This document shows, piece after piece, positions 23,873-48,132 of a stretch of DNA of 64,000 bases. This DNA is from Marinicella sp. (lineage in GTDB: Bacteria > Pseudomonadota > Gammaproteobacteria > Xanthomonadales > Marinicellaceae), in the NCBI GenBank assembly GCA_965230295.1, contig OZ246001.1, forward strand, positions 3,808,001 through 3,872,000, written 5' to 3'. Under the pieces are notes generated by a model that was given only the letters and a program-made list of their open reading frames with translations, was not told the origin of the DNA and did no database searches. The position numbers and the translations under genes were made by a program. Position 1 is the first letter of the stretch; the number at the start of each line of letters is the position of its first letter.

Positions 23873-23977
23873 GTTCTTTACATCAATATGAAATTCATAT
23901 TTCTCAAGTAAGTTTATATCTGCAATACAACCAGTTGTAGTCAATTATCTTTAATATATTTTGAGTACTCAAACATT

Positions 23978-25738: not shown

Positions 25739-25927
25739 ATAGCTTAATCAGCAGCAAGCCTTTGTTGCCTAACTCATAAACTTAAAGGGAAGTAGGCAAC
25801 AACTTGCAAATGTATTAGTTTCAGTAGATATTATTGCAAGCCGGTAGTGACTTTGTTGATATTGATCAACCATCAGTAAGTCAGAAAAAACATGAAAAAC
25901 ACATCCTTAGCTTTTACGTATGCTTTG

Positions 25928-25954
25928 TGCAACAATTTTATCACTTATTGCAAC
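25928..25954 (+). promoter_or_regulatory. Putative operator TGCAAC-N15-TGCAAC
   Basis: tgcaacaattttatcacttattgcaac upstream of the second LRR gene. Confidence 0.55.
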
Positions 25955-26107
25955 AGTCTTAATATCGACTTTGGTTTTTCTTCAATAAAATATGTCTCTA
26001 AATTCTTCATTGTCTTGTAAACCTTTCAATCGAAGTTAATTTAAGTTTTTAAAATGTTTTGAGCATACTGAAAATCAATCATTACGATTTTGTTTGATTT
26101 CATTGCC

Positions 26108-26197
26108 CAATAGGTTAGATTACAATAGGTTAGATTACAATAGGTTAGATTACAATAGGTTAGATTACAATAGGTTAGATTACAATAGGTTAGATTA
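26108..26197 (+). repeat. Perfect tandem repeat (CAATAGGTTAGATTA)x6
   Basis: Six exact 15-bp units ending 1 bp before the ATG at 26199. Confidence 0.97.
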
Positions 26198-26198
26198 T

Positions 26199-27053
26199 AT
26201 GAAAATAAAATTATTAATCATATTTATGTTTTTTTTAAGCATGGATGTTTGGGCATTTGATTGCTCTAGCCCAGATGTATCTGTAGCTGAGTGTAATGCG
26301 TTAAATGATATGTATGGCCCTTTAGGCATAGCGGGCTCATCATTGCCTGCAGCAGACATAAACAGCTGGGGGGAAACTACCGACAATACCGTTTGTGACA
26401 TATCACGAATTACATGCGATTCATCCACACCAAGACGTGTTACTCGCTTACATCTAGTCGGCGCGGACTTGAGAGGCACTATCCCTGACTTGAGTGCATT
26501 TACTAATTTGCAAGATCTTTGGTTAGCTAATAACCAGCTCATTGGTCACATCCCTGACTTGAGTGCCTTGGCCAACTTACAATCTCTTGATTTACAGCGT
26601 AATCAACTCAGTGGTCCCATCCCTGACTTGAGCGCCTTAACCAATTTACAACGCCTTTTCTTGCATGTTAATCAGCTCACAGGCCCTATCACTGAGTTGA
26701 GCGCCGTGACCAGTTTGCAACGCATTTACCTGCAATTTAACAATCTCAGTGGCCCTATCCCTGACTTGAACGCCTTGGACGATTTGCAACAACTTTCTTT
26801 GGATAACAATTATTTTTTCGGAGAATTTCCCGACCTCAGAGAAACAGGACTACAAGAAGGACGTACGTTGGGTTTTCATACAAACTGCATAGAACCGAAT
26901 GTAAATAATTTAATTAATGACTGGGTAAATGCCAGAACCAGTCCTAATAACCATTTTAATAATCAACGTGCAGATATAAATACATGCTTGGATGAATTCA
27001 TCATTACTGATATGATTTTCATTGATACATTTGAGTTCGATGCGTTTGAATAA
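26199..27053 (+). CDS. Secreted LRR protein, shorter paralog of the 22670 gene
   Basis: MKIKLL...VWA-FDCS matches the paralog; about 5-6 LRRs; tail TDMIFIDTFEFDAFE. Confidence 0.9.
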   Translation: MKIKLLIIFMFFLSMDVWAFDCSSPDVSVAECNALNDMYGPLGIAGSSLPAADINSWGETTDNTVCDISRITCDSSTPRRVTRLHLVGADLRGTIPDLSAFTNLQDLWLANNQLIGHIPDLSALANLQSLDLQRNQLSGPIPDLSALTNLQRLFLHVNQLTGPITELSAVTSLQRIYLQFNNLSGPIPDLNALDDLQQLSLDNNYFFGEFPDLRETGLQEGRTLGFHTNCIEPNVNNLINDWVNARTSPNNHFNNQRADINTCLDEFIITDMIFIDTFEFDAFE

Positions 27054-27862: not shown

Positions 27863-27951
27863 AAATCATATAACTATTTTCCTTCCAGCCTAATAGACTT
27901 TCACGTACCAATACATCATCGCTGATGTCTTTAAAACACAGGAGTAGTTCA

Positions 27952-28440
27952 ATGATCTCAAAAAATCAAAACGGAGCCGCAATAGGCTTTTATTTTGCTG
28001 CCTTTACCTTCAATGGAGACAATGGCTTTCGGCTGGACGGTGGAGTTGGTGTGGATTCCATGTTTGGAAGTGCACTCAGCGAAGCAAAAGATGTGAATCT
28101 AGATGGTATAGATGACATCATAATTGGCTCATCGATTGGTTTTGTGGGCTCAGTTCTAGCTGCGGGTAAAAGTTATGTTGTATTCGGTAACGATGAGGGA
28201 GTGAGCCATCCTTTAAATATTTCTGAATTAAATGGGAGCAACGGCTTTTCCATTTTGGGAGCTGATGTCAATGGATATCTGGGAACCAGCGTCAGCGGAA
28301 TTGGTGATTTCAATGATGATGGAATTGGAGATGTGATGATGAGTGCACCACGAGCGGATGTTGGTGGAGAAAACGAAACAGGTAAAAGCTTTATCATATT
28401 CGGAAATGAACAGGCCATCTTTGTCAATGGTTTTGACTGA
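27952..28440 (+). pseudogene. Internally deleted FG-GAP gene (partial signal fused to last two repeats)
   Basis: RBS AGGAG, MISKNQ...FAAFT joined to NGDNGFRLDG; close to the 3' part of the 39823 gene; tail QAIFVNGFD. Confidence 0.75.
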
Positions 28441-28542: not shown

Positions 28543-29722
28543 AATAAATATGAATTATTTGGTCATAGTTATTTTCAATAACTAGCCTATGCTTATTTGT
28601 AAAACCAGCTGTTGTTTTATTGAGTTTATGCCACCTAGAAAGGCTGTCCAAACAATTTTGGATCCATACTTTGGTTTACTATCATAAACTGATAAAACAT
28701 TTTGATACTTGAAAATTAATTCAAAACTCCAAGGGCCTTTATACGTGCCCTTGTGGTAAATGTTGATCAATAAGAGCAGATGTTTATGCTCGTTTTGAAA
28801 AATAGCCCTGAGTTTTTCAGTTATTGGTTACAGTACAACTAACTCAAAGGCCAGGGCTTAATGCAAATGCGGTAGATGAACAATGCACCCTTGTGAAATC
28901 CGTTGAAATCACTAAAAATTAGTTATTCAAGGGTAATGAGTTTAGAGGTGAGTAATATTTAGGGCAAGGCATCAGCCGAGCTCAGGTACGCTGGAAAACC
29001 AGGTTTTCATCGTCTCCATCCTGATTAATCCATTAGGATTTTTTAATAATTTCATTGTAAATAGTATTTATTTCTTGGCTAATTTTTGAACTTATAAATT
29101 CTTTTGAATAAACTGCATTTAAGTTATATAGAATTATTGGTGTGGTTTTTGACAATCCTAAATTCGTCAATAACTGAATAGGGCTGATCTCAAAGTTTAA
29201 TTAGCTATTCATACCATATGTATGCCGGAGCCATTGAGCAGTTGCTTTTTCACATTTTTTTAATATCTTCTTCAAAGTATTTTTCTAAGACCGTGTTTTT
29301 TATACAGCGGCTGATTTTGCAGAATCAATTTACTTATATCATCAAAAACTATTATTATATTGGTAATTTGACGTATAGAAACTGTTTTTTGAGATACACG
29401 TTTGGCTACAAAAGAAATATTACCTGAATCTAACTCATTGGAGTTTTGCGCACATTCCCTCTAAATTCACATATTTTTTGCTAAGTGATTGATTGTGAAT
29501 GTCATGTATTTGTTAATAGAACAATGGTCAAAAAATGTGATCATCATTGTTTTTTGAAGATTACAACGACACCCATTCTGACCAGTTTTAATCCTAACAT
29601 TTATAATGTATCTAATCTAATGTTTACAACTTTAAGTACTGAACCAATAATCATTCAAAGTTATCGGTGGCTATTCAATAATTGACCCAAAAAATTAATT
29701 TAATTCTTAAATACAATAAGGA

Positions 29723-29806: not shown

Positions 29807-31387
29807 TTAATCAAATTCAAACCCGTTAGTAAAAATGGCTGATTCTTTGCCAAAGATCACATAGCTTCTACCAGGTGATGTATCAGCCGGACCTGCATCA
29901 GGAGCCCCAATGATCAAATCATCAAACCCATCATCATTGACATCACCAGCTGAACTGACTGAAAAACCAGAGGAGTCAGCTGTATTTTCACCATTGATAA
30001 CAAAGCCATTTTTACCATTTATTGAGGACAGTTCAAACGGATTGGGTAAACCACTAGCACTGCCAAAAATCACATAGCTTTTTCCTGCATCTGTATTACC
30101 ATTTGGATCGGCAAGATTGGCTCCAATAATCAAATCAAAAATTCCATCACCATTGACATCACCCGCTGAACTGACAGAGTGACCTGACTCATCACCTGTA
30201 TTTTCACCATTGATAACAAAGCCATTTTTACCATTTATTGAGGACAGTTCAAACGGATTGGGTAAACCACTGGCACTGCCAAAAATCACATAGCTTTTAC
30301 CTGCATTTGTCTTACCATTTGGATCGGCAAGTTTAGCTCCAATTATCAAATCATCAATCCCATCGTCATTGACATCACCTGCTGAACTGACAGAAAAGCC
30401 CAAATAATCATCAATATTTTCACCATTGATAACTAGACCAATCGGGCTAGTTAGACTAGACAGAGTTAACGGATTAGGAAAACCACTATTCCTATTCCTG
30501 CCAAAGATCAAATAGCTTTTACCATCGCTTTCTGCTCCAGGTGCCCCTACAATTAAATCATCAACCCCATCATCATTAATATCACCAGCTGAGCTAACTG
30601 AACGGCCTGACCAATCATTTTCATTTTCGCCTTCGATAACAAACCCATTTTCATCTTTGAGATTTGATAGGTTTAGCGATCCCGAAAAACCACTTTTACT
30701 GCCAAAAACCACATAGCTTTTACCTGCAGATGATTCGTTATTCGGGCTTGCAGAAAAGGCCCCAATAATTAAATCAACAACCCCATCACCGTTTACGTCA
30801 CCAGCAGAACTGACTGAATAACCCGAATAATCATCTTCATTTTCGCCATTAATCATAAAACCATCCACGCCATAGGGAAATGAAAGATCAATCGGATTAG
30901 GTAAATCATCCTCACTGCCATACACCACATAACTTTTACCAGCTTTTGACTGTGCGCCATAAGCTCCAATGATCAAGTCATCAATCTCATCGCCATTGAC
31001 ATCACCTGCTGAACTAACTGAAATACCTGAAAAATAGAACCTATTAACACCATTGGCAACAAAACCATTCTCACCATCAAGAGCTGAAAGGCTCAACAGC
31101 TTGGGAAAATCACCCTCACTGCCATACACTACATAGCTTTTACCAGCATTAAATCTACCACCTAAACCAGCGCTAAAAGCCCCAATGATCAAATCATCAA
31201 TTCCATCACCATTGATATCACCAGCTGAACTGACTGAAAAACCAGAGGAATCACCTTCATTTTCGCCGTTCATAACAAAGCCGTTGCTGCCATCAATATC
31301 TTCTAAGTTAAGACTTGAATAATACTCAGCAAATCCATCAGTAGAAATAAGTATCAAAGTAAAAGTTATATAAATAAATGTTTTCAT
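29807..31387 (-). CDS. Secreted FG-GAP propeller protein, 7 repeats
   Basis: Signal ending GFA; 7 repeats, two of them near-identical; tail SAIFTNGFEFD. Confidence 0.93.
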   Translation of the reverse strand: MKTFIYITFTLILISTDGFAEYYSSLNLEDIDGSNGFVMNGENEGDSSGFSVSSAGDINGDGIDDLIIGAFSAGLGGRFNAGKSYVVYGSEGDFPKLLSLSALDGENGFVANGVNRFYFSGISVSSAGDVNGDEIDDLIIGAYGAQSKAGKSYVVYGSEDDLPNPIDLSFPYGVDGFMINGENEDDYSGYSVSSAGDVNGDGVVDLIIGAFSASPNNESSAGKSYVVFGSKSGFSGSLNLSNLKDENGFVIEGENENDWSGRSVSSAGDINDDGVDDLIVGAPGAESDGKSYLIFGRNRNSGFPNPLTLSSLTSPIGLVINGENIDDYLGFSVSSAGDVNDDGIDDLIIGAKLADPNGKTNAGKSYVIFGSASGLPNPFELSSINGKNGFVINGENTGDESGHSVSSAGDVNGDGIFDLIIGANLADPNGNTDAGKSYVIFGSASGLPNPFELSSINGKNGFVINGENTADSSGFSVSSAGDVNDDGFDDLIIGAPDAGPADTSPGRSYVIFGKESAIFTNGFEFD

Positions 31388-32582: not shown

Positions 32583-33833
32583 TCAGTTTGAAAGTTTGTT
32601 GTTTTCAATAATTTGGTCATATATATTTTCAATATCCAACTTATATTTATCGGTAAATTTGCCTGCATTTTTAGCTGAATTCACGCGATATAAAATAACT
32701 GACAATGGGGCATAGTTACCAAGAGTTTTCATTGCCTCAATTGGTCTCATCGACTTATTTTCTACCTTTGCACTCCCAAATGAGTTTCTTAACCATTGAG
32801 CAGTAGCCATTTGGCACTTTTCAATATCATCAATGAAATATTTTTTGTATGTGGTATTTTCATAAATAGATTGGTTCTGAATAATTATTTTGCTGATATC
32901 CATTAAAGTTGATCCAACAATGGTCGAAATCTGCCTAGTTGTTATTTTCTTTAGTTTATAGGTATTTGAAACCAAAGGAATGATGACATCAGAATCAGTT
33001 TCGAAATATTCAGCCATGTAGCTTAGTTGTGAATTAATTACTTTCAACTGCTCAGAGTTCAAACTGATATAACGTTCATTTGAACCCATGATTTTAAGGA
33101 ATAATTCATTTTCTAAAGAAATTACATCTGAATTTTTCATATTGGAAAGTTCTGTTATTTTGAGCCCGAACTCTAACAAAATGTAAATGATCAAAAAAGC
33201 GCGATTGGCTTCAAAACAATCATAAGAAAAGCGATCGTAATCTGTTTCTTGTGCTAATACTGTTAATATGAACCTAGTTAGCTGGGGGTTTAAAGTTTTG
33301 CTGTTATACCGACTTTCCAATTCGCTGAGAGAATCATCTTTCATGAGATAGGCTGGTACAGGGTTCCTATATAAATAACAATTTGATTTCAAAAATCTGT
33401 AAAGAGTGTGTATTTTCCTAAGTGAGGACCTTACTGAAACCTTGGATCGAATTGATTTACGAAAGGGACGCCATTCAGGATTAATGCTATCATCGATTAA
33501 GATTTTTTTCTGATGAGTCCCCACCCATCTCTTTAAAGGTTTTGGATTGTAAAGAAATTCAGAGTAGGCCATGCAATTATCTGTCGTGAAAGCAGTAAAA
33601 GAAATGTTATTCTGCTCTAACCACAATAAAAATGTTTCAATTTCTTTGTAATAGGCACTTATGGTGTTTTTCACAGATTCCTTCATTGAAAGAAACTTCA
33701 TAATTGCATCAATATCAGTATTCACAGACAAATCGTTTTCTAAGTCTTTGCACAGGTTTTGGCCTGGAGCAAATACATCTGGCACTCTGTGCAGAATAAC
33801 TTTTGAGGATTTATATAACAGTATCGGCTCCAT
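32583..33833 (-). CDS. Tyrosine recombinase-family protein with degenerate active site
   Basis: Core-binding domain (NTISAY..E.E.FLLW, WRPF, YLYRNP); box I FGLKITEL (R to K), box II AQWLRNSFG (H to Q), LGNY (H to N), SVILY. Confidence 0.8.
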   Translation of the reverse strand: MEPILLYKSSKVILHRVPDVFAPGQNLCKDLENDLSVNTDIDAIMKFLSMKESVKNTISAYYKEIETFLLWLEQNNISFTAFTTDNCMAYSEFLYNPKPLKRWVGTHQKKILIDDSINPEWRPFRKSIRSKVSVRSSLRKIHTLYRFLKSNCYLYRNPVPAYLMKDDSLSELESRYNSKTLNPQLTRFILTVLAQETDYDRFSYDCFEANRAFLIIYILLEFGLKITELSNMKNSDVISLENELFLKIMGSNERYISLNSEQLKVINSQLSYMAEYFETDSDVIIPLVSNTYKLKKITTRQISTIVGSTLMDISKIIIQNQSIYENTTYKKYFIDDIEKCQMATAQWLRNSFGSAKVENKSMRPIEAMKTLGNYAPLSVILYRVNSAKNAGKFTDKYKLDIENIYDQIIENNKLSN

Positions 33834-33844
33834 AATTTACACTC

Positions 33845-35206
33845 TTAGAAATATGAGTTGATTGCTTCGCCACCGAGATTAAAAATACTCAATAATTTTC
33901 TGGATTGTTTATTATCAAATTCAAAAATATCTTCAGGATAATAAACTGATAGTTTTAATTCATCTAATATGAATGTATATGGGCACCTGCATTCAAAGTT
34001 ATTTTGCAAGCCACCAACTATTTTACCATCGTCACTCTTTTTTGTTTGTTCCAAGAAAGATGACACGTACTTGAAAATACTGAGATAAGTGGTCCATAAA
34101 TCTATCTTATAAACCAACATTGATAGCTCCATAGGCATGCGATAGAACTTTAATTCTGATTTATCACAAATTACTTCATGTCTAATGAAAAACTGATGGA
34201 CTTGAGGTAGCTTAAGGCCACGACTAGTCATGTTGTTATATAAATCAGTAAAAACTGAAGCAGACCTATCTTCTGGCACATAATGACCATCATGAAGTAG
34301 CTTAATTAACTCTAGTGTGTTTGTCTTAATGTGGGCACTTGTTAAATCAGCGGTGTTGTTTTTAAGTAAGCATCTAATTTTTGATAATGATTTTTGGGTT
34401 ACTCTAACTTTTTGCTTATCTAGAGCACTCCAATAGTCATTTTCATTCACAAATCTGGACATATTGTCATCAGTTGTAACAGTATATTTTTGCTTGTTAA
34501 TTCGATAAAAAGGAACTTTTAACTCTTGAGCAAGTTGTTTCTCTGATTCAAATAAATCACCTTCCTTTGCCATTACAGATAAATTGAAAATGTGGTTATT
34601 ATTAATAACAGGCTTTGGAGTGAAAAACTGTGTATCTAAATACAGTTCAAATTTTGGCAGATACTTTTTCGAACGTCTTATGATTGAGTTTAAGAAATGG
34701 ACTTGGTCAAATTTTTCGTCACATGGTATTTTATTTGATTTGACTATTTGATTATCTAATTTTGTACCACAGGAACTACAGCCTCTTGATATTAAGTCAT
34801 GAGACATAGGCCAGTGAATTCCACATACATGACAGTTTGTTATTAAATCAGCATCATGAATAGGGCACTTTAGTAACCAAGGTTCATCAAATAGTTTTGT
34901 ATGAAACCCAATCTCAGCGCATTCTGGGCAATGCTTTAGTGGTCTATATCCTTTTTGTAATAAAAGATTCAACCTTTGATCTGATGGAATGTTTGATCTT
35001 TCATACATACTAGCAAGCAATGCAGGCTTGTATGCAATCAGTTTAGAATTAATAAATAGCTCACTTCCTTTGATGCCGACGTTCTTGAATTCTTTAATGA
35101 CTTTGCAGATAGAATTTAACCTTTGATTTGCAATAAGAAACCTGCGATAAGCGGAGTAGGGGCTTTCTCCTGGTCTTTTCAGCATTTGGCCAGTATTAAT
35201 CATCAA
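33845..35206 (-). CDS. TniQ/TnsD-like target-selector protein
   Basis: PGESPYS N-terminal motif; Zn ligands CPEC...GFH...W..CPIH...CHVC...CSSC; follows the AAA ATPase gene. Confidence 0.72.
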   Translation of the reverse strand: MMINTGQMLKRPGESPYSAYRRFLIANQRLNSICKVIKEFKNVGIKGSELFINSKLIAYKPALLASMYERSNIPSDQRLNLLLQKGYRPLKHCPECAEIGFHTKLFDEPWLLKCPIHDADLITNCHVCGIHWPMSHDLISRGCSSCGTKLDNQIVKSNKIPCDEKFDQVHFLNSIIRRSKKYLPKFELYLDTQFFTPKPVINNNHIFNLSVMAKEGDLFESEKQLAQELKVPFYRINKQKYTVTTDDNMSRFVNENDYWSALDKQKVRVTQKSLSKIRCLLKNNTADLTSAHIKTNTLELIKLLHDGHYVPEDRSASVFTDLYNNMTSRGLKLPQVHQFFIRHEVICDKSELKFYRMPMELSMLVYKIDLWTTYLSIFKYVSSFLEQTKKSDDGKIVGGLQNNFECRCPYTFILDELKLSVYYPEDIFEFDNKQSRKLLSIFNLGGEAINSYF

Positions 35207-36165
35207 ACTAACTCAACTTCATCAGGAATCAAGCCAGAAGCATTTATACTGGCTTCTACCATCTGGCTCATTAGAATAGGGTCATTGACTCCGTTGTTGG
35301 GAATAAAATCAAACAACAATATACGAATCATGGATAGAAAGTATTGAATGGGCCATGACTCTATTCCAGCTTCTTTACGAAAGCATTCCTCATAAACTTG
35401 CCAGATGATTTCTGTAATATCAATTAATCTCCAGTCATCAGACACTTCCTGATTCCATAGGTATTCTTTGGTATACGAGTTTTTCTTTGTAAACAAATAT
35501 TTTTGATCAATCTCACTTAAACATGCCTTCAGTTCTATTTCCTTTCTGATTCCATAGAAATTATGAAATTTCAATAAAAACCGTCCCCTTATCAATTCAT
35601 ACTGTGGGTTTTCTTTCATCTTGTCTAATAACTGTACCGAAGCAGAATGATTCCCAACAAAGAAAATCGAAAGATGAATCCCAAAATTCATCAATCCATC
35701 ATAGAGTTCAGCAAATACTTCAAACTGTTTAGGCCTAAGTCTTTGCATTTCATCAATAAAAAGAATCAGATTATGAGGAGTTTTAGAATTAGTCGCAGAC
35801 TCACCAAGAAAATAAATCAAATCATTAGCCATAATGTCTGCGCGAGTATTCTCAGTTATTGATAGTTCAGCTGAATAGCACAGCTGCCTAAGTATTCCTG
35901 TAATGGTTCCTACATCTCTTGGTGCTATAGAAGTGAAATGGCAATTAATTTTTTGATTTCTTCTTGTGTATATTCGATCTTTGACATGCTGTATTGCCGA
36001 GGTTTTTCCAATTCGGTTAGAACCAAGAATGACCCCTCCAGAGAAGCCATTCAAATGCCATTTATGGATGACCTCAGACAGTTCATCAATCATCGGAGTT
36101 GTTATAAAAAACTCCTTTAGATTCATCATCTGATCATAAATATTTGAGGAGCCATCATTACTCAT
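35203..36165 (-). CDS. TnsC/TniB-like AAA+ ATPase
   Basis: Walker A GSNRIGKTS, Walker B ILFIDEMQRL, sensor FFVGN, Arg finger IRGRF; ATGA overlaps with both neighbours. Confidence 0.85.
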   Translation of the reverse strand: MSNDGSSNIYDQMMNLKEFFITTPMIDELSEVIHKWHLNGFSGGVILGSNRIGKTSAIQHVKDRIYTRRNQKINCHFTSIAPRDVGTITGILRQLCYSAELSITENTRADIMANDLIYFLGESATNSKTPHNLILFIDEMQRLRPKQFEVFAELYDGLMNFGIHLSIFFVGNHSASVQLLDKMKENPQYELIRGRFLLKFHNFYGIRKEIELKACLSEIDQKYLFTKKNSYTKEYLWNQEVSDDWRLIDITEIIWQVYEECFRKEAGIESWPIQYFLSMIRILLFDFIPNNGVNDPILMSQMVEASINASGLIPDEVELV

Positions 36166-38066
36166 CTTTTTTCTCCTTTGAATAAACCTCTGTTCCATTC
36201 GAAAGGGTTGTGTGATTTCCCGGTTTGAGTAAGATCTACTTCGTGATTGCTGTTGTTATTAAAATCATTTATTTCATCATCAGTTTTAAGGTGGTCAAAG
36301 GTGTTTATGCTTGAATTAAACTCTTTGGCCAGCCTCACTATTTCTAATGCTTCGCTAGGAAGGTGCTTGTCTCTCATGTGAATATCAAACATATTTCTGA
36401 GGGGATCTTTCAGTTTCAGGTTTTCCTTTCTGGTATATTTTGAGATTCTTTTTTTGGTTCTAAGCGAGAATGGGTGAGACTGCCAAGAAAGTGGAGCCAT
36501 CAAAGCTCCAAGAGATGTTCCATCTTCCTTAAATGCTTCAACCACTCTCAAGTCCCTTCTGTCAAAACGGATGGTTATTTTCTGATTTTCTAATTCAGAC
36601 TCGTTCAATCCTTCTCCAACATACCGAAGCCCATTAAAACTGATTTCTGGTGCTCGATTGTCACTTTTATACCAACATATTTTTCTGGTGTCTTGAGATA
36701 CAAATGGGCCTATGTTGTCTTCCCTCATTGCATAATTAATCCTTAGTGGATGACGTTCGTTTTGATATTTCAGATAATCTAATGGTGAAAGACCTCCCAA
36801 GCGCTCACGAGGCCGAGTGTTCTCAGCTGACACGACTACACTGATAACTTCTTCTAGTGTGCGCAGGGAAAAAGTAGGAACCTTCTTTGTATTAGATTTT
36901 GTTTCTTTAAGAGGATCTAAAACATGGGAGCCAGTTGTTGATGGAAAACGATGAATAATTTCATTTAATAATTTAAATGCGTACTCAATTAATTGTCTAC
37001 TCTTAGGATTTGCTGGTAAACCATAATTGAGGGTTGCTCCCAATGTAATTAAAACATAATCTTTTATACTCTTAGCCCTATGGCATTTTGCATTATCAAG
37101 TCCTACAATGCCAATTGATCGAAATTGAAACTCCTCATCCAGAGCACTTGGTAAACATGCACCCAATTGATATTCTAGCCCTGGTGTTTTCAATTCCATT
37201 GGCTCCCATTTTTCGTTTAGAAAACTGAATAAATTCAATAAGTCATCTTGATTAGGTTCTTTGGTGTAGCACAAAAAGTAAGAAAGAATACAATCAGATG
37301 CAACATCTTTCATCATAAATAAAGAAAGTCGCGAGAGCTTTAATGTTTTAATTACTCCATTATCATCAATAGCTATATTTACTTTTATATCTGTTAACTG
37401 AGAATCCAGTTGTATTTTTTGAAATGGCAGGAGGTCAATAATTTGAGTCTGGTTAATTGACCGCTGTTTTTTCTTCTTTGGCATGCGGTATTTATTAACC
37501 AATTTATGAAAATACCTTCTACAACTTTCTAATGCCTTGTTAGACTGATCGAAAGGATATTGATCATCAGGCCAGTTTAAGTCTTCCAACTCTGCTAGAA
37601 ACGCTTTATGAAAACTTTTTGGGGTCATGTTTTCTGCATTAGGATCCCTTCGCACAAACGCTTTTACTTTGTTCTTGAGTCTTTCGGTCATTTCTATGTT
37701 TTCCTCAAGAATTTTAGTAAATGAACCTCGAGCTCCTGAACATTTATGCTTACTTAAAGATTTTTTTCTTTTTCCATTATTTATTTTTTGACCTGGAATC
37801 AATGCTTTAGTTAAAGGTTGATCGTCATCCTCATAACCTGCCAATGCTCTACTCATTAAACGGCTTATTGCTGAAACCGAGATATTTTCCTCATCAGCTA
37901 TATCTTTAAACCTAATACCTAACAGTACTTTTATTACAATCCGTTGATTTCTTAAAAATTTTGTTCTTTTAACCCCCTTAAATTTCTTATGGTTTACTTT
38001 CGGCCAATTTTTATAATCTCTAAGTAGTGGAGAATACTGAAGCCGGAGTAACCATGTTAACCACAT
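36162..38066 (-). CDS. TnsB/TniA-like DDE transposase
   Basis: N-terminal HTH; IQLDS / GLDNAKCH / RQLIEYAF (D-D-E); LGGLSPL; Mu-like C-terminal barrel ITIRFDRRDLRVV. Confidence 0.82.
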   Translation of the reverse strand: MWLTWLLRLQYSPLLRDYKNWPKVNHKKFKGVKRTKFLRNQRIVIKVLLGIRFKDIADEENISVSAISRLMSRALAGYEDDDQPLTKALIPGQKINNGKRKKSLSKHKCSGARGSFTKILEENIEMTERLKNKVKAFVRRDPNAENMTPKSFHKAFLAELEDLNWPDDQYPFDQSNKALESCRRYFHKLVNKYRMPKKKKQRSINQTQIIDLLPFQKIQLDSQLTDIKVNIAIDDNGVIKTLKLSRLSLFMMKDVASDCILSYFLCYTKEPNQDDLLNLFSFLNEKWEPMELKTPGLEYQLGACLPSALDEEFQFRSIGIVGLDNAKCHRAKSIKDYVLITLGATLNYGLPANPKSRQLIEYAFKLLNEIIHRFPSTTGSHVLDPLKETKSNTKKVPTFSLRTLEEVISVVVSAENTRPRERLGGLSPLDYLKYQNERHPLRINYAMREDNIGPFVSQDTRKICWYKSDNRAPEISFNGLRYVGEGLNESELENQKITIRFDRRDLRVVEAFKEDGTSLGALMAPLSWQSHPFSLRTKKRISKYTRKENLKLKDPLRNMFDIHMRDKHLPSEALEIVRLAKEFNSSINTFDHLKTDDEINDFNNNSNHEVDLTQTGKSHNPFEWNRGLFKGEKR

Positions 38067-38722
38067 AATTTCACCTCAGTATCATATGAAAACGGCCTCT
38101 CTTCTAAATTCATGATAACCATCCCTTTATGACATAATCTATAGAAAGCAATCTCATGAGCTTTTTTATTAAACCTATCATGCTGAGAAATGATGTCACC
38201 CAACTGCTGCTCTGGTGTAATGCTTAAGGAATCTAATATCTTATATTCTTGGTTCTGTGTTTCAATGTGACTGTTTATAACAAGAGCTCTGATAATTTCG
38301 AGCCAGTTAACAGCAAATATTTCTCTATCCAACACTTCTTCATTTGAGATAACCAAGAATTCAATATTTTCTCTTTTTAGGTAGGCTTTTAATGGGATTT
38401 GTATTCTCTGACTAAATTTACCCTTAGGTTTGAGTTCAACAATATATTTCTTGCCATTTTTTACATAGTAACAATCAGGGATATATGGCCTGTTTCCTAT
38501 TAAGAATTTGTGTGATTGAGGCACAAATCTTGTTACTTCAGGATCACTTTCTAAAATTGCCGCATGAAGAAATTCGCTCTTCGAATGAAATATTCCAACT
38601 TCTGGAAATTTAATGAATATTTGATAAAAACAATTACTGCCTTCTTCTATTTTTTTCGCGTCAGCCATATGCTGGAAAGGGGTTAATGTATCTGTTTTTA
38701 CTTTTAAATTACTAGTTTTCAT
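38057..38722 (-). CDS. TnsA-like endonuclease
   Basis: HSKSE...LESDPEVTRFVPQ, YIPD...IVELKP (PD-(D/E)xK), C-terminal winged helix. Confidence 0.78.
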   Translation of the reverse strand: MKTSNLKVKTDTLTPFQHMADAKKIEEGSNCFYQIFIKFPEVGIFHSKSEFLHAAILESDPEVTRFVPQSHKFLIGNRPYIPDCYYVKNGKKYIVELKPKGKFSQRIQIPLKAYLKRENIEFLVISNEEVLDREIFAVNWLEIIRALVINSHIETQNQEYKILDSLSITPEQQLGDIISQHDRFNKKAHEIAFYRLCHKGMVIMNLEERPFSYDTEVKLCG

Positions 38723-38760: not shown

Positions 38761-38815
38761 AACAACAATATTTATTGGAAGTAACAACAATATTTTCTGT
38801 TGTTACAACATTTTA
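38761..38815. repeat. Repeat cluster upstream of tnsA (candidate TnsB sites or operator)
   Basis: AACAACAATATTT at 38761 and 38783, partial copy at 38804; perfect IR gtaacaaca/tgttgttac at 38781-38806. Confidence 0.6.
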
Positions 38816-38890: not shown

Positions 38891-39361
38891 ATGGTCGAAA
38901 AACAAAATAATGTAAAAGGTTACAAACCTGGCCAGGTTTGTGAGCTTATAGGTGAGAGCTATGAAACCCTAAGATATTGGAGAGAATACCTATACCCCAA
39001 ACCTCCCCAAATTCATTTCAGTTTGAATGATATTTTCATTTACCATTTCATAAAATCTTTTATTAAAGGAAAGAGAGTAGATGTCAACGAACTTGAAAAA
39101 GTAGAATGGAGAAAAATTTTACAAAGATGTAGTAGCTTGAGTGCTGAAGAGAAAAAGTCTTGCATTGCTGTATTTGACTTTCAGAGCAGAAAATTTTCTT
39201 TTATAACATCTATCAATCAAATAGATTTAAGCGATGACAGGTACACTTTTGTTTACATGAAAACAATTTTTAATCGATTTAATTTATCATTGCGAAAATT
39301 TGGAAATGCTAGGTCAAATATTGTTCCTATAGAAACCGGCCTTTTTATTGAAGCCTCTTAA
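38891..39361 (+). CDS. MerR-like/excisionase-like HTH protein divergent from tnsA
   Basis: YKPGQVCELIGESYETLRYWR...FSLNDI matches the MerR-type HTH. Confidence 0.65.
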   Translation: MVEKQNNVKGYKPGQVCELIGESYETLRYWREYLYPKPPQIHFSLNDIFIYHFIKSFIKGKRVDVNELEKVEWRKILQRCSSLSAEEKKSCIAVFDFQSRKFSFITSINQIDLSDDRYTFVYMKTIFNRFNLSLRKFGNARSNIVPIETGLFIEAS

Positions 39362-39574
39362 TATTGGTTGGGTTCGGCTAATATTATTTCTTAGTGATTT
39401 AATCCTGCTGAACTGCCCAATTAAATTTCTACCACATTCCATATTATTTTTTTATTTAAATAATGTGCATCTATGTTTAGTGCTATCTGGTTATCTATGT
39501 ACAATATATTGAGAAAATTTTTTTTAAAGGGAAAAGAGTGCTAGACAAGCTACTCATAAAAATGAGTATTTATT

Positions 39575-39825
39575 TTGAATAAAAAATATCGTTTAACATT
39601 GATGGTCATATCACTAATTACGATAATAACAATAGGACGTTTATCCACAGGATCATTTGACTTTTGGAGCACTCAATTCTGGTTTGTTTCTGGGGCTTTA
39701 TTACTTATATTACTAGCATTAATTGATCAACCACATTTTTCAAAAGACGCGAACATATTTGTTAACGGTTCGACTGCTCTTATTTCATTATTCGTCGTCC
39801 AATCCAATGATAGAGATAATTTTTG
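39575..39825 (+). pseudogene. 5' fragment of a membrane protein, truncated by fusion to an FG-GAP gene
   Basis: Three hydrophobic segments; after ...DRDNFW the DNA switches abruptly to FG-GAP sequence (gccggggattttaatggtgat) read in another frame. Confidence 0.65.
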
Positions 39826-41262
39826 GCCGGGGATTTTAATGGTGATGGCATCGACGACCTCATCATTGGCGCTTGCAGAGCTACCCCTGATGCTGTTAAT
39901 AATGCTGGGCGCAGCTATGTTGTTTTTGGCACACAATCTGGTTTATTTAACCCTTTGGCATTAAGCGATTTGGATGGTTCAAATGGGTTTGTCATAGATG
40001 GTCATATTCCTAATGGTTCATCAGGCAGATCGGTGGCATCCGCTGGAGATGTGAATAACGATGGCATTGATGACATTCTGATTGGTGCACCAGAAGCAAC
40101 AAATCAAGTTACACAAGCAGGCATTGTTTATTTGATTTATGGCTCAGATGAAGGTTTCTCTGCACAGCTGAACTTGAACGACCTGAATGGTATCAATGGG
40201 GCGGTCATAAACGGAAACTACATTCAAAGCCGTTTTGGCCATTCAGTGAATGCCGCCGGTGATGTCAATAACGACGGCATTGATGACATCATAATCGGTG
40301 CACCTGATGTTGATAGCAATGACGTTGTTAGATCTGGTGCTGCGTATATCATTTTTGGTCATGAGCAGGGGTTGATTCATCCTTTGGGTGTATCTGACCT
40401 GAATGGAATCAATGGTTTTGAAATTCGCGGAATAACACAAGAAAATTCAAGAATTGGATATTCAGTGGCTGAGGCTGGCGATGTCAATGCAGATGGCATC
40501 TCAGACATCATCATCGGTAGTGCCTATTTAGTAGGCCATATCGGCGATTTTAATGCCGGTCAGAGTTATGTTGTCTTTGGCAGTGATCAGCGGTTCCCAA
40601 ATCCGTTACAGTTATCTGAGTTAAGTGGAAGTAATGGGATCCAGATTTTAGGTGAACATGCAGATGATCAATCGGGATTTGCGGTGAGTGCTGCGGGAGA
40701 TATCAACCATGATGGCATTGATGATTTTGCCATCGGTGCTGTCGGTACGGATCATAATGGGTTAGAAAATTCAGGATCTGTGTATGTGATTTATGGGGGT
40801 CATTCAGAGCTTCCTCACCCTTTTAACCTGAGTTCAATCAATGGCGTTAATGGCTTTCGATTGGATGGAACTGATGCGAGAGCCAATTTTGGGAATGCAA
40901 TCAGTAAAGCACAAGACATTAACCTGGATGGCATGGATGACATCATTATTGGGGCTTTTACTGCACCTGTTCCCTCAGTGACTGATGCGGGCAAAGCATA
41001 TGTCATCTATGGCAGTGATCAACCCATAGGCCACCCCTTCAATCTTTCTGCTTTAAATGGGCTTAATGGATTTGCTGTTTTAGGGTCGGATAATGACAAT
41101 CTGGGGAGCAGCGTGAGCGGAATGGGAGATTTCAATAACGACGGAATTAGCGATCTGATTATTGGTGCTTTTAATGCGGCTGTTGAAGATCAAAGCCGTG
41201 CAGGAAAAAGTTATCTGATATTCGGTACCGAGCAGGCCCTTTTTGCCAATGGTTTTGACTGA
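39823..41262 (+). pseudogene. FG-GAP propeller gene lacking signal peptide and 5' end
   Basis: All 7 Ca-loop repeats present but begins mid-repeat at AGDFNGD; tail QALFANGFD. Confidence 0.8.
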
Positions 41263-41286
41263 CCCTATTAATCTATTTGCGAGCAT

Positions 41287-41363
41287 TGTGCCCGTATTGA
41301 AAGGATTACTGTGTTTCTCTCCCTCCTCTTCACAGTTAATTGACTCGATACGGGCACATTTTT
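41287..41363 (+). repeat. 3' hairpin element with CCTCCT loop
   Basis: 14-bp stem tgtgcccgtattga/tcgatacgggcaca, inner stem actgtg/cacagt, loop tttctctccctcctctt, T-tract. Confidence 0.65.
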
Positions 41364-41621
41364 ATGATGTCTAATCACAGTGCCAAGACACATGTTATAA
41401 ACGATTAAAATATTAAATACCGATGAGCCACAACGAGATAAACGGTTGCTTCCATGCTCCAACATCATCAAAGTCGAAAACTTGCAAATAAAGACTGAGT
41501 TAATTGAGCTGCCCTGACATTACAATTAACTGGTTTGAATCATCCAAGCTCCAAAACAAGCAGTCAAAAGGCGTCCCCCAGTGAGGTCTTTTTGTATTTG
41601 CATTCAATCAGGTAACAAGTA

Positions 41622-41648
41622 TGTAACAAAATTAATACCCATTGCATC
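41622..41648 (+). promoter_or_regulatory. Putative operator TGTAAC-N15-TGCATC
   Basis: 21-bp spacing; spacer nearly identical to the 31493 copy. Confidence 0.55.
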
Positions 41649-41735
41649 AAGCTTGATAACCGTTTTCCTTGCTTCTGCCTAAACTCAAGCCCATCCATCA
41701 AAGTGATGGGCTTTTTTACAAACAGGAGGAGACAA

Positions 41736-43343
41736 ATGAAACCTCAAAAACAACTTTACTGGGCGTTGCTTACGTCTGTATTTTTTAACAACACATCACA
41801 CGCTGGCTTTGATGCCGAATTGAGCTTGAGCGAAATTGAGGGCCTGAACGGCATCGTTGTTCAAGGAGAAAACCCCCATGATATTGCTGGGTTTTCGGTC
41901 AGTCATGCGGGTGACCTCAATGGCGATGAAATTGATGATTTCGTTATTGGTGCTTATGGCGTAGATGAAGGGATTGCCCAGAATGCGGGTCGCAGCTATG
42001 TGGTGTTTGGTTCTGCCTCAGGTTTACCCAGCCCATTGAATCTCTCTACTTTGGATGGCAATAATGGTTTTACCATTCACAGTTCAGCCACCAATGGGGG
42101 CTTTGGTCATTCAGTCAGTCATGCTGGTGATGTGAATCACGATGGATTGGATGATTTAATCATAGGCGCACCTTACTCCAATGTGACCACAATATTCCAA
42201 ACTGGGGCGGCGTACGTGATTTTTGGCCAAGACGAAGGCTTTGACAATGTCATAAATGTTGAAGATTTGAATGGCGATAACGGCTTTGCTATTTTTGGTA
42301 ATCAACAACAGAGTACTTTAGGTTTTTCAGTTTCATCGGCAGGTGACATCAATGATGATGGCATTGATGATGTCATTATCAGTGCACCAAAGACCGATAA
42401 CAATGGTGTCAATGATTCAGGTGCCGCATATGTGATTTTTGGAGATGACTCTGGATTTCCTCACTCTCTTTCCATCTCTGCTTTAAACGGTCTGAACGGA
42501 TTTGAAATTCGTGGTTTTCCATTTCAGTTTAATGGCCCTGAATTAAAAGTAAGTTCGGCAGGAGATGTCAATCACGATAACATCAATGACGTTGTTATTG
42601 GAGGCCCCAGAGTTGGGATAGATGGGCAGGAAGAAGCTGGTGTCGCTGTGGTGGTCTATGGACAATCAACACGCTTTCCTAATCCTGTGCAGATGTCAGA
42701 GATAGATGGTGATAATGGCGTGCATATTTATGGCATTGCTGCATTTGATCAAACCGGTTACAGCGTCAGTGAAGCCGGTGATGTCAATGCCGATGGCATA
42801 GATGACCTGATCATTGGGGCCAGAAGAACTGATTTTAATGTCACCAATACTGGATCGGCATACGTGGTTTATGGTCAATCATCAGGGCTTGCGCATCCTC
42901 TGGATTTAAACGACATCAATGGACTCAACGGCTTTCGCATAGATGGAAACTTATTAGGTGCTGAATTAGGCACTTCTGTCCATTCAGCCGGTGATATCAA
43001 TCATGATGGTATAAACGATCTGGTTGTGGGCGCACCAGACGATTTAGTACCAGATACAAATGCAGCAGGTAAAAGTTATGTGATATATGGCTCTGATCAG
43101 GGCATTGGACATCCCATTAATGTGGCGGCTTTGGATGGCAACAATGGCTTTGCCATCGCAGGTTCGGATGACAATGGGAAATCAGGGCAGGCTGTCAGCC
43201 AGGCTGGTGATGTGAACAACGATGGCATCAGCGACTTCATCATAAGTGCCCATTTAGCTGGTGCCAATGGCATAAATGCAGCAGGAAAAACTTATGTGGT
43301 TTATGGCCGTGAAAAGCCTTTGTTTAAAGGTGGTTTTGAATGA
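41736..43343 (+). CDS. Secreted FG-GAP propeller protein, 7 repeats
   Basis: RBS AGGAGG; signal ending SHA; 7 repeats; tail KPLFKGGFE. Confidence 0.93.
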   Translation: MKPQKQLYWALLTSVFFNNTSHAGFDAELSLSEIEGLNGIVVQGENPHDIAGFSVSHAGDLNGDEIDDFVIGAYGVDEGIAQNAGRSYVVFGSASGLPSPLNLSTLDGNNGFTIHSSATNGGFGHSVSHAGDVNHDGLDDLIIGAPYSNVTTIFQTGAAYVIFGQDEGFDNVINVEDLNGDNGFAIFGNQQQSTLGFSVSSAGDINDDGIDDVIISAPKTDNNGVNDSGAAYVIFGDDSGFPHSLSISALNGLNGFEIRGFPFQFNGPELKVSSAGDVNHDNINDVVIGGPRVGIDGQEEAGVAVVVYGQSTRFPNPVQMSEIDGDNGVHIYGIAAFDQTGYSVSEAGDVNADGIDDLIIGARRTDFNVTNTGSAYVVYGQSSGLAHPLDLNDINGLNGFRIDGNLLGAELGTSVHSAGDINHDGINDLVVGAPDDLVPDTNAAGKSYVIYGSDQGIGHPINVAALDGNNGFAIAGSDDNGKSGQAVSQAGDVNNDGISDFIISAHLAGANGINAAGKTYVVYGREKPLFKGGFE

Positions 43344-43362
43344 TGGTCAAACTTTGAGTCCA

Positions 43363-43432
43363 GTGTTTGTTTTGAACGACTTGCTTTTTCCCACCTCATT
43401 TAGCAAGTTCAGTAGGAATAGGCACATTTTTT
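43363..43432 (+). repeat. 3' hairpin element
   Basis: gtgtttgtt/aataggcac outer stem, gacttgct/agcaagtt inner stem, loop ttttcccacctca, T-tract. Confidence 0.55.
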
Positions 43433-43472
43433 AAATCTTTTCTTTTAAAATCAATGCAGATTCAGGGATAAC

Positions 43473-43829
43473 ATGATGAATTCAAAAAATATTAACTATG
43501 CGTTCAGCTTGATGTTGCTGCTGTTGGCTTTCAAGTCACTGGCTGAATCAACCACCATCGAAATTCCTGCCGAATTTCACCCAAACAATGAAGCGCTCAT
43601 CTCTGTGGTCAATGTGAATGTGCCCTTAAACGCTACGACAGCCCAGCCTGTCCCTGCTTGTATTATTGTTCATGGCTCTGGCGGGTTGTTTTCTGAAGGT
43701 GAAGTTGGCGAAGCATGTGATACTTCTCCCCATAATATGAGTGGCAATTTCGCTGATTTAATGGCTGTTTTCGAAGAATTAGGCGTGGCAACGATTGCCC
43801 CATCCAAAGAAAAAAATAGGCTGAATTAA
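43473..43829 (+). pseudogene. 3'-truncated secreted alpha/beta hydrolase (paralog of 13154 gene)
   Basis: VPACIIVHGSGGLFSEGEVGEACD matches; homology stops at IAPS (about 43806). Confidence 0.8.
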
Positions 43830-44038
43830 TTTTAGATATCTCTTATGGATAGAAATGCATTTTGATTTACTCTCAATTATTAAATCAGGATTAAATCAGG
43901 ATTTAATAATTTAAATTCTTCATTTGAATGGAATAATACAGCCATAAATAAGTATTTTGGGTTTGAGTAAAAAAGAAATAAGCTGTATAGTTAAACTTGA
44001 GATCAAGTCTTAACGACAACAATAAACTGAATAATCAA

Positions 44039-44539
44039 ATGAACATGTTAAAAATAATTGTGACAATTACAACTCTTGTTTTATCATCAATAAGTAAGGG
44101 AGATTCCAAAGAAAGTTGTGAAGATTTATATTCAAAAAGTCTTGAAACAGACTTATACCTAACTTACGAATTATTTGATCAAACTCCAGCAAATGGATTT
44201 CGAAAACTTGCGGGTCAATGTCCAGGCGAAGCTGTTAAATTAATAAAAAACTATATTATCATTAACGAAGCAAAAGAAAGCTCCTTGAGATGGCATATTG
44301 CTCAACTGGAAGGAATGATGGGCAATTATCAGGAGGCTATTATCTTTGCAAATACTGTTCTTACTGAACAAAATACTGGACAGTTTAAATGGAATGATTT
44401 TGTTGAGGGTAAAATTGCATATTGGAAACAAGATTTCGAAACCTTAAAAGATAAGATTAAGATTCTTGAAAGTAATTTGGATCATCGGGGGAACAAGATG
44501 AATGTTGAAATTCTGAAAGGGCATCTTGCTGAAGAGTAA
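44039..44539 (+). CDS. Hypothetical secreted helical (TPR-like) protein
   Basis: Signal-like N-terminus; LRWHIAQLEGMMGNYQEAI helix pair. Confidence 0.6.
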   Translation: MNMLKIIVTITTLVLSSISKGDSKESCEDLYSKSLETDLYLTYELFDQTPANGFRKLAGQCPGEAVKLIKNYIIINEAKESSLRWHIAQLEGMMGNYQEAIIFANTVLTEQNTGQFKWNDFVEGKIAYWKQDFETLKDKIKILESNLDHRGNKMNVEILKGHLAEE

Positions 44540-44614
44540 ATCAATCTAAATATATAGATTTCGTAATGAAAGTAATCTTTGCATCAATAAAATTCAATAT
44601 AACTGATTGAGTCT

Positions 44615-47146: not shown

Positions 47147-47316
47147 TAAAAGTTGGCGGTTTACGTAGCTATGTGGTCACTGGGCCCTTATGGAGGTTTG
47201 ATACCCAAATTAGCCCGAATTTAGTCAATCACCCAAGAGTTGACTCAGAAAAACAAATTATCTCAATAGCTTACGTGGGTTTCATGTCCATTTTTGGTTA
47301 AATCTGGCACATCACC

Positions 47317-47913
47317 CTAAATTTGAATTCGAGGTTCCCAACGATGTGATTTATAGTGTCTGTAGCTTTCAAGAAGAGTAAAGTTGTTATTTTCTTTACT
47401 TAATAAGTTTAATGCTTTTAGATATTCATTTTGATTTGAGAAATTGAAGCCAAAGTTTTGAGGTGATTATAATCTTTTGACGACTTCTAAATATGTTAAT
47501 ACTTCTTGTTTATTATTTGGATTGAATGAATGAAAATTTGACCATACAAGTAAGCTGATTTTTTCTCTCATTAAATAAAGATTCAAAATACAAGCATCAG
47601 CATAAAAACTTACTGGTCCATATGTTTGTGAATGTGCTTGACCATCAGTAGTAACTTCTTTATATGCCAACGAGTGTGACTTCATTTTTGTGAAGCCATA
47701 AACAAGTTGATCTGCCAAATGTTTAATGTCATTTGCCCAATGGAATGTATTGAACTTCCAATGACTGTTTTGATTTTTATAAAATTTAGTTCTTAAAATA
47801 TTAAATTCAATATCTAGCTGATTAATTTCTACATGCTTACACACATCATCAGTAAGAGAGTGATAAATGTTATCCGCATTGTCAAACACGTCTTTATTCG
47901 TTAAGTTTGTCAT
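47317..47913 (-). pseudogene. HEPN-domain (Cthe_2314-like) gene interrupted by nonsense codon
   Basis: Reading through TAA at 47467 continues in frame to ...LLESYRHYKSHRWEPRIQI, containing an Rx4H motif (47344-47361). Confidence 0.55.
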
Positions 47914-48021
47914 GAAACTACCAAGTTCATAGAAACTATAGATTTTACAATTAAATTATGCTCATGTATTAAAGTTAAAAAAAATCAAATTTGCGTACAT
48001 TTCATAATTTAATTTAACTGG

Positions 48022-48102: not shown

Positions 48103-48132
48103 TGGAATAGGTTTGTTAAATGATTAATTAAA

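Follow-up and report, generated by a model that had tools for sequence, protein, structure and literature searches.

Tn7 inserts at attTn7, downstream of glmS, by means of TnsABC and the target selector TnsD; its ends are asymmetric, with packed and dispersed TnsB sites respectively, insertion creates a 5-bp duplication, Tn7R lies toward attTn7 with tnsA nearer to that end, and the site itself is left intact. Here we describe a Tn7-like element of Marinicella sp. (Gammaproteobacteria; GenBank assembly GCA_965230295.1, contig OZ246001.1) that lies beside the chromosomal dimer-resolution site dif, and whose tns operon ends in a gene for a tyrosine recombinase-like protein (YR) with replaced catalytic residues. 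The operon lies in a 64,000-nucleotide stretch (positions 3,808,001 to 3,872,000 of the forward strand), hereafter the window, to whose numbering positions refer unless given as genome coordinates.

Several described elements bear on this arrangement. The 'res-site hunters' Tn5053 and Tn402 lack TnsA, target plasmid res sites of serine resolvases and use a resolvase of their own on cointegrates; reportedly they insert beside a res site only when the cognate recombinase occupies it. IMEX elements, such as the CTX phage, integrate within dif by means of XerCD and duplicate it. Elements of the IS1202 family (ISAjo2 group) are described as lying, always in the same orientation, a short and constant distance off dif and pdif sites, on the XerC side (PMC10132070). 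TnsF of Tn6022 is described as a 498-aa protein in which an N-terminal zinc-finger region of about 199 aa precedes two core-binding (CB) domains and a partial catalytic domain without the active-site chamber; it is a protein which targets comM and for which target selection and TniQ binding were shown (Faure et al., 2023; PMC10293859). Tn6022 islands are further described as carrying an active XerC-like cargo recombinase with its catalytic residues kept, which recombines an element-borne dif-like site (PMC11014353). Our full-text searches returned no published description of Tn7-like homing to dif, although they did not cover the supplements of Tn7 surveys, which might list such loci.

The tns operon and its position beside dif

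Five tightly packed open reading frames (ORFs) on the minus strand, in the order tnsA-tnsB-tnsC-tniQ-YR, make up the operon (Table 1), with overlaps of 10 nt (tnsA/tnsB), 37 nt (tnsB/tnsC) and 4 nt (tnsC/tniQ) and a gap of 11 nt between tniQ and YR. Pfam matches are weak yet consistent (Tn7_TnsA-like_N at 17.7 bits for TnsA, below the cut-off; Mu-transpos_C at 22.1 bits for TnsB; AAA_22 at 37.3 bits for TnsC), a PD-ExK motif can be read off TnsA and GKT and DE motifs off TnsC, and TniQ matches no Pfam model, the TniQ model included. Library support being thin, the identities of the tns proteins were settled by their homologs. We found 36 TnsB homologs, and D254, D324 and E361 are invariant in an alignment of 21 TnsB sequences. 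The order tnsA-tnsB-tnsC-tniQ, as far as the contigs extend, was recovered by tblastn at 17 of the 24 loci found with a TnsB profile (L009-L025, TnsB 30-42% identity; hereafter the closer related loci) and at an eighteenth with 26% TnsB identity (L026), the remaining six being distant (~25%); tnsA homologs (tblastn, 26-46%) stand immediately upstream of tnsB at these 18 loci and also at L195-L198. TniQ aligned with 16 relatives (17 sequences) keeps C93, C96, H102, C114, H117, C125, C128, C143 and C146 invariant; its first ~150 aa share 29-40% identity with the TniQ of 15 relatives, and its C-terminal 290 aa just 10-21% with any relative. An Atlas search with this C-terminal part gave weak leads only (best 0.89, a TnsD-named cluster 0.77).

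The transposon ends were identified from L033, a metagenomic locus with the same five genes (85.5% nucleotide identity), whose homology to the window ends exactly at the operon borders and which carries three dispersed copies of TTTAGTGGGTTAGTTGTA downstream of YR, the first 246 bp past the stop codon. Allowing up to three mismatches, this 18-mer forms only two arrays in the host genome, and its other matches there are three isolated ones, each with 3 mismatches. Both arrays point outward; read inward, the termini are TAAAGA... at the dispersed end, which begins TA and not TG, and TGGAGG... at the packed end. They delimit a unit of 73,713 bp, which has its packed end toward dif and tnsA on that side, 9.4 kb in. 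A copy of the same 5-bp duplication adjoins each terminus (Table 1), and 36 bp, made up of the 5-bp duplication and a further 31 bp, separate the packed terminus from the near edge of the 28-bp dif. That site differs from the E. coli dif 28-mer at 4 positions and is its closest match in the 4.0-Mb genome, the next four matches having 8 mismatches each, and it coincides with the maximum of the cumulative GC skew. Its arms are named after the XerC and XerD arms of E. coli dif. The genome has a single intact dif; each junction consists of a transposon terminus and a copy of the 5-bp duplication, and no duplicated or hybrid dif is present.

These results agree with an earlier note on this DNA, which had described a coupled tnsA-tnsB-tnsC-tniQ series followed 11 nt on by a 416-aa recombinase, as ORFs, spacing and homologs bear out, and had placed dif about 9.4 kb from tnsA, as the best match to E. 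coli dif and the skew maximum confirm. Its statement that no cas or tnsE gene is visible also held in Pfam scans of 29 window ORFs, which were not exhaustive and which contained no serine resolvase either.

The element resembles Tn7 in encoding a heteromeric TnsA/TnsB, a TnsC AAA+ protein and a selector of the TniQ/TnsD family in one operon, in its asymmetric multi-site ends and 5-bp duplication, in turning its packed end toward the selector's site while leaving that site intact, and in having tnsA nearer to this dif-facing end. Insertion is site- and orientation-specific at a fixed distance, and binding of the site by the selector is predicted. It differs from Tn7 in that the attachment site is dif and not a protein-coding or tRNA gene, in the cargo between the packed end and tnsA, in the recombinase genes that accompany the module, and in proteins so divergent that Pfam barely detects them. 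With IMEX elements it shares dif at the terminus as a universal landing site and tandem stacking, whereas dif is here untouched and insertion occurs 36 bp off with transposon ends and a 5-bp duplication. The dif-associated IS1202 relatives, by their description, are single-transposase insertion sequences of 1.5 kb lying 5 bp from the XerC site (PMC10132070), in contrast to a Tn7-type machine at 36 bp. In short, the element is of Tn7-like kind and differs by a new attachment site, an unusual cargo position and a recombinase-derived accessory other than TnsF.

Dif homing in relatives and the island at the terminus

Of 151 genomes in the order to which the host belongs, 56 matched a dif pattern, and 30 dif loci were examined, 13 from the host family and 17 from other families. 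Eight of the 13 host-family loci have a packed array, ending TGGA(N)G...CA, at a distance of 34-37 bp from dif, on the XerC side in G000, G001, G002, G003, G008, G022 and G030 and on the XerD side in G023; G026 and G024 are ambiguous, G014, G027 and G028 have no packed array at dif, and none of the 17 loci of other families carries a TGGA-type array. Most of the host-family ends are relics, with no tns gene within ~20 kb of dif on the element side in the loci checked (less where the contig ended). A TnsB profile run on 25 host-family genomes, G000 among them, matched G000 twice, G023 twice and G008 partially, with two weak matches elsewhere.

The same spacing recurs among the closer related loci. 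Four of the 17 have dif at most 10 kb upstream of tnsA, at 34-37 bp from a TGGACG... terminus in L015, L021 and L025 and on the XerD side at 33 bp in L024; the host genomes of L012, L013, L019, L016 and L023 have a packed array next to dif at 37, 43, 46, 33 and 36 bp. Thirteen of the 17 closer-relative genomes were searched for dif, four of them giving no dif match, and all nine with a match carry family-type ends 33-46 bp from it. Mapping insertions against dif, as the earlier note had advised, mostly places the packed end at 33-37 bp; the two exceptions are at 43 and 46 bp. A gene-less mini element of 721 bp (L034, 5177-5907, duplication AGACA), in a metagenome-assembled genome (MAG) without tns genes of the family, lies on the XerD side, 31 bp from dif, a spacing equal to that in the window. 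It emerged from a scan of the genome collection with an end 17-mer, which otherwise returned mostly repeat noise from Prevotella and Chamaesiphon; the only other relevant locus was L041, a 273-kb contig from the MAG of an uncultured Marinicella, which opens with a dispersed-end array of the same site type (positions 1-167). That genome has no YR of the family, only one weak match to a distant integrase.

The side of dif differs between groups, the Spongiibacter and Neomelitea genomes using the XerD side and the Marinobacter group the XerC side; insertion on either side had been considered as an argument for a symmetric target complex and is weakened by this, since side may be lineage-specific. 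By eye, three dif loci in another family of the order (L169 in G078, L170 in G152 and L172 in G057) show three packed repeats ending ...GACA on the XerC flank, 28-40 bp from dif, whose site sequences differ from those of the family studied; judging from these, other Tn7-like lineages may use dif too.

Two older elements lie behind the one described here (Z), in the order X-Y-Z-dif. Element Y spans 47.9 kb (genome 3734469-3782379) and has an intact tnsABC-tniQ set (genome 3742756-3747582; L197 7756-12582) with a TnsB 40% identical to that of Z and no in-operon YR. Its packed end (...GGACGTCCA) stops at 3782379, abutting the duplication of Z, and its dispersed end begins at 3734469, right after the packed end of X (...GGACATCCA, ending at 3734462). 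The Y duplication, AAACA, is present at 3734464-3734468, and its other copy has been split into AAAC and A by the insertion of Z; these interlocking duplications give the order of insertion. Read back in time, X, Y and Z each landed close to dif, at 36, 35 and 36 bp, and the island at the terminus now exceeds 120 kb.

The sequence documents the ends with their duplications, the distance to dif, the tandem order and the recurrence of that distance in relatives, and it is very probable that this Tn7-like family lands at dif, about 36 bp off, with the packed end toward it. Under the mechanism that we propose, dif is the attachment site of the family and is left intact; TnsA and TnsB would form the transposase of a cut-and-paste element, with TnsC as AAA+ adaptor and TniQ as selector, and TniQ, which is TnsD-sized with a fast-evolving C-terminal part, would direct TnsC and TnsAB to the spot near dif. 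New copies would take the same 5 bp and push older ones outward, producing the island.

Table 1. Features of the element in the window and of its two flanks.
Feature	Position	Strand	Remarks and basis
tnsA-like endonuclease gene	38057-38722	-	221 aa; ORF call
tnsB-like DDE transposase gene	36162-38066	-	634 aa; ORF call, homologs
tnsC-like AAA+ gene	35203-36198	-	331 aa; ORF call, Pfam
tniQ/tnsD-sized target-selector gene	33845-35206	-	453 aa; ORF call, homologs
catalytically substituted tyrosine-recombinase-like gene (YR)	32583-33833	-	416 aa; alignment, AlphaFold (AF2), Foldseek
packed-site (Tn7R-like) end	48030-48096	+	three 18-nt sites at 48030, 48050 and 48073; terminus ...CCTCCA at 48096
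dispersed end	genome 3782390-3782532 (window -25610 to -25468)	-	three sites; 25.5 kb before window start
right copy of 5-bp target-site duplication AAAAC	48097-48101		adjoins packed end
left copy of AAAAC	genome 3782379-3782383		directly outside dispersed-site end
31-bp spacer, duplication to dif	48102-48132		sequence
chromosomal dif TATACGCATAATATATATTATGTTAAAT	48133-48160	+	XerC arm, 6-nt spacer, XerD arm; XerC arm toward transposon
156-aa ORF divergent from tnsA	38891-39361	+	N-terminus helix-turn-helix-like by eye; ORF; no Pfam match
9-bp inverted repeat, tnsA/helix-turn-helix control region	38781-38806		GTAACAACA, 8-nt spacer, TGTTGTTAC; read from sequence
broken fragment of second related YR gene	29036-29287	-	residues 329-412 matched, 31% identity, 2 stops (L005)
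51-nt copy of YR 3' end	28553-28603		78% identity
interior on dispersed-end side	1-32582		extends 25.6 kb past window start; FG-GAP, LRR, CotH, DUF285 cargo
cargo between helix-turn-helix/tnsA side and dif-proximal end	39362-48029		FG-GAP genes, trypsin-like peptidase

A helix-turn-helix-like ORF divergent from tnsA is found not only in the window but also in L033, L009, element Y and the G023 elements, and homologs of the 156-aa protein (25-32%) occupy this divergent position in L009, L195, L196, L197 and L198. The inverted repeat between the two genes, which adjoins two AACAACAATATT repeats, is possibly the operator of the tns operon. Those repeats had been considered as end motifs and were dropped, as they do not recur as an array; they may instead be an operator. 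The cargo includes at least 10 paralogous FG-GAP genes flanking the tns operon on both sides (1633-9038, 14679-16268, 19154-20254, 27925-28440, 29807-31387, 39823-43343), with CotH-kinase/LTD, LRR and DUF285 genes among them (20579-27053). The 15-nt unit CAATAGGTTAGATTA stands in about six tandem copies (8 units across 120 bp, 26093-26212) at the start of an LRR-protein ORF.

A recombinase with four of six catalytic residues replaced

YR has lost four of the six catalytic residues of tyrosine recombinases (R to K, K to S, H to Q and H to N) and retains Arg-II and the Tyr. A profile of the three closest sequences, run against 1.84 billion representative proteins, drew in 884 relatives at E<=0.001, of which 115 reached E<=1e-10 and 4 reached E<=1e-30. 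An alignment of 108 full-length family members allows the YR clade (YR itself and three proteins with 85%, 51% and 32% identity to it) to be compared with the other 104. Within the clade Arg-I is K in all four members (R in 101 of the 104), Lys-beta is S, S, N and a gap (K in 100), His-II is Q, Q, Q and K (H in 100) and His-III is N, N, N and I (H in 103); Arg-II and Tyr are kept (R in 103 and Y in 102 of the others). A word-indexed protein search with YR returned 3 proteins, two genome-collection scans for the clade no match, and a metagenome scan one locus, L033, where the gap between tniQ and YR is 2 nt. A genome-collection scan with TnsB as a single protein gave no match either.

Compared with L033, whose YR is 86% identical, YR has a dN/dS of 0.107, next to 0.085 for tnsA, 0.100 for tnsB, 0.111 for tnsC and 0.248 for tniQ. 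AF2 with the 108-sequence alignment predicts a full two-domain recombinase fold (pLDDT 95.5, pTM 0.89). In this model, which supersedes a run on a 4-sequence alignment (pLDDT 43.5), a short beta hairpin is followed by a helical CB domain; a single CB domain and a complete catalytic domain are present. YR is an inactivated recombinase maintained by purifying selection and is not decaying, because the losses are clade-wide, its dN/dS is like that of tnsA, tnsB and tnsC, and the predicted fold is intact. Broken fragments of related YR genes do lie 3-4 kb away, as would suit a captured integrase of which YR is a decaying remnant, but the ORF is intact, the clade keeps the same substitutions at 33-86% identity and the fold is predicted with confidence, which makes such a remnant hardly credible.

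A Foldseek search with the model matched 66 chains of the Protein Data Bank (PDB) at E<=0.001, the best being XerA, XerH-difH, lambda Int and Cre; alignments to XerH, Cre and lambda Int span 350-398 columns and cover both domains. A sequence search of the PDB with YR found no match. The fold matches Xer, lambda Int and Cre structures solved on DNA. By their titles, the matches also include DNA complexes of the Tn1549 integrase with Arg-to-Lys or Tyr-to-Phe changes, one of which (6en2) bears the same Arg-to-Lys change as YR; we take these variants to be inactive trapping mutants. Pfam gives Phage_integrase 21.8 bits, under its cut-off of 27.1, and the NCBIfam Xer models are far below threshold (XerD 37.7 bits against a cut-off of 329.6, XerC 27.1 against 335.15). 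With four of six residues replaced and 416 aa against about 300 aa, YR is not a XerC/XerD dimer resolvase; two Xer-sized genes are present elsewhere in the host genome.

In being catalytically dead, derived from a tyrosine recombinase and encoded right after tniQ in a Tn7-like operon, YR resembles TnsF as that protein is described (PMC10293859). Unlike TnsF, by the same description, it has 416 aa, one CB domain, a complete catalytic domain and no CxxC pair, belongs to another YR family, and is paired with a long tniQ product (453 aa) rather than a short one in an element at dif rather than comM. Since YR is a complete recombinase of CB and catalytic domains without a zinc-finger region, and its sequence holds no CxxC or CxxH pair and hence no zinc-finger motif, it is a co-option separate from TnsF. 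The earlier note's description of the protein itself is upheld: the GLK, QWLR and LGN substitutions are all real, and a fourth is added to them (beta-hairpin Lys to Ser); the suggestion of an inactive recombinase with substitutions conserved under purifying selection is borne out in four of four clade members and by the dN/dS; and fold model and sequence agree with its picture of an ordinary core-binding N-terminus, no zinc finger and a domestication independent of TnsF.

Other recombinase genes accompany the family. At 12 of the 17 closer related loci (L010, L012-L016, L019-L021, L023-L025) the strand opposite tnsA encodes, ~0.2-1 kb upstream of it, a catalytic-domain-only recombinase of ~246 aa, a fragment in one case, that has kept all six catalytic residues. 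An intact 418-aa member of the YR family is carried as cargo by Y (genome 3776534-3777616, plus strand) and by G023:C12 (24753-25847), and further YR-family genes or fragments occur close to the packed ends of X and Y as well as beside dif in G024 (G024:C1:442262-443353) and L015 (1636-2121). Several recombinases of this ~418-aa type sit just inside the packed end and read toward dif; the G024 gene ends 254 bp from dif. The in-operon YR of the window matched none of the 24 related loci by tblastn. L010 has a 387-aa YR 130 nt after tniQ on the same strand, with Arg-I, Lys-beta and His-II changed, and L011 a 328-aa YR 437 nt after tniQ, also on the same strand. Recombinase genes have thus been added to the tns module several times, with a crippled one behind tniQ in at least two cases. 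On the right side of dif at L154 (G045:C25), ~25 bp past the site, there is another, partial dif-like arm (TTAACATAATAT), and 4.9 kb away a 430-aa recombinase of the family is intact; this could be an element that was integrated by recombination at dif.

That YR itself is still active with an unusual active site, resolving or reshuffling the tandem elements, is very improbable. Arg-II and the nucleophile Tyr are retained, the ~246-aa neighbours of tnsA in related loci have an intact active site, and the Tn6022-associated XerC-like enzyme is described as active at a dif-like site (PMC11014353), but each of the four residues replaced in every clade member is kept in 100-103 of the 104 relatives, and the DNA-bound Arg-to-Lys and Tyr-to-Phe variants in the structure set are taken to be inactive.

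Possible roles of YR at dif

For YR we propose that, co-translated with TniQ, it would use its full DNA-clamping fold without cutting DNA, sitting on a dif half-site or on the XerC/XerD-dif complex and helping TniQ and TnsC to mark the spot as a private Xer mimic. The position of the gene directly after tniQ, with tight coupling, suggests joint action with TniQ. The earlier note had suggested that the recombinase possibly steers insertion to Xer/dif-like or terminus DNA, of which one half stands and the other does not: the element does home to dif, with its end 36 bp away, and the recombinase is not the cause, because relatives without an in-operon YR, and relic ends in many genomes, sit at the same spacing. 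YR is therefore not needed for dif specificity, homing is a trait of the family, and dependence of homing on the in-operon YR was dropped as an explanation; since such relatives reach dif, YR would modulate or secure dif capture and not create its specificity. Taken as a whole, a dif-homing Tn7-like element with YR as the non-catalytic partner of TniQ at dif is the statement that we favour by a little, and the part of it that makes YR a co-selector in dif capture is tentative.

Several observations weigh against this reading. Elements without an in-operon YR insert at the same spacing (Y, G023:C12, L015, L021, L024, L025), and only one YR-bearing copy, that of the window, has a visible dif junction, the contig of L033 ending before its other end. 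The nearest active relatives of YR are ~400-aa island integrases and not XerC or XerD, and the contact of YR with dif or TniQ is something we infer; a co-fold of TniQ and YR scored 0.00, which bears neither way. Homing itself is less uniform in some Marinobacter genomes, where offsets of 43 and 46 bp occur, and in five genomes (L012, L013, L019, L016, L023) the dif-side ends may belong to other copies than the tns genes do. Finally, tandem insertions may have fused to give the 73.7-kb unit: because successive insertions reuse the same 5 bp, its matching flanks are no proof of a single event, and the YR-gene fragments inside it (Table 1) hint at a composite past, although no internal X-, Y- or Z-type end arrays were found within the unit.

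If TniQ alone selects dif, YR might instead be a non-catalytic DNA-binding regulator or guard that represses or times the tns operon, binds the transposon ends or occupies dif, in the last case preventing XerCD recombination between dif and similar sites of the tandem island. We consider this rather unlikely. The homing of YR-less relatives would fit it, as would a TniQ that is TnsD-sized here as in the relatives and the accumulation of recombinase genes in dif islands, where control over Xer could matter, but the tight coupling of YR to tniQ suggests action together with TniQ, and no YR-type binding site turned up inside the element, where no systematic search for one was made.

It is improbable that YR gives the element another route to targets, of the kind provided by TnsE or an additional TniQ in other Tn7-like elements. 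On that reading TniQ alone would lead to chromosomal dif and TniQ with YR to recombinase sites on plasmids or phages and so to horizontal spread. The active relatives of YR are integrases of other mobile islands (those that could be placed, L006 and L007, are stand-alone island integrases), and two selectors are described as common in Tn7-like elements (PMC10293859); on the other side, the element has only one selector-sized TniQ, and no plasmid- or phage-borne copy turned up, plasmid and phage collections not having been searched.

Beyond co-selection by YR, and held with still more reserve, the family could sense recombinase-loaded dif and not DNA sequence alone, the disabled Xer-like clamp of this subclade loading on dif and handing the site to TniQ and TnsC; this would be the second independent conversion of a tyrosine recombinase to a selector after TnsF. 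For the sensing of a loaded site the closest analogy is Tn5053, likewise a TniQ-bearing transposon beside a site-specific recombination site, which differs in that our element has tnsA and showed no serine resolvase in the 29 window ORFs scanned. The XerC-like enzyme of Tn6022 islands likewise ties a Tn7-like element to an Xer-type recombinase and a dif-type site, but unlike the role proposed for YR its described activity does not direct transposition (PMC11014353).

With this locus a recombination site outside any gene joins the attachment sites known for Tn7, and it can be seen how large islands build up at replication termini through stacked insertions. Beside TnsF, it also provides a second case in which a recombinase has lost catalysis and become part of a Tn7 operon, and makes testable whether Tn7 selectors read protein-loaded recombination sites, as Tn5053 reportedly does at res. 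As dif is short, nearly universal and present once per chromosome, a machine that lands 36 bp off without harm would be a natural safe-harbour system for insertion, potentially usable in a very wide range of hosts, and if loaded dif is indeed sensed with a clamp of the element's own, the family would possess a self-contained module homing to a site found in nearly every bacterial chromosome.

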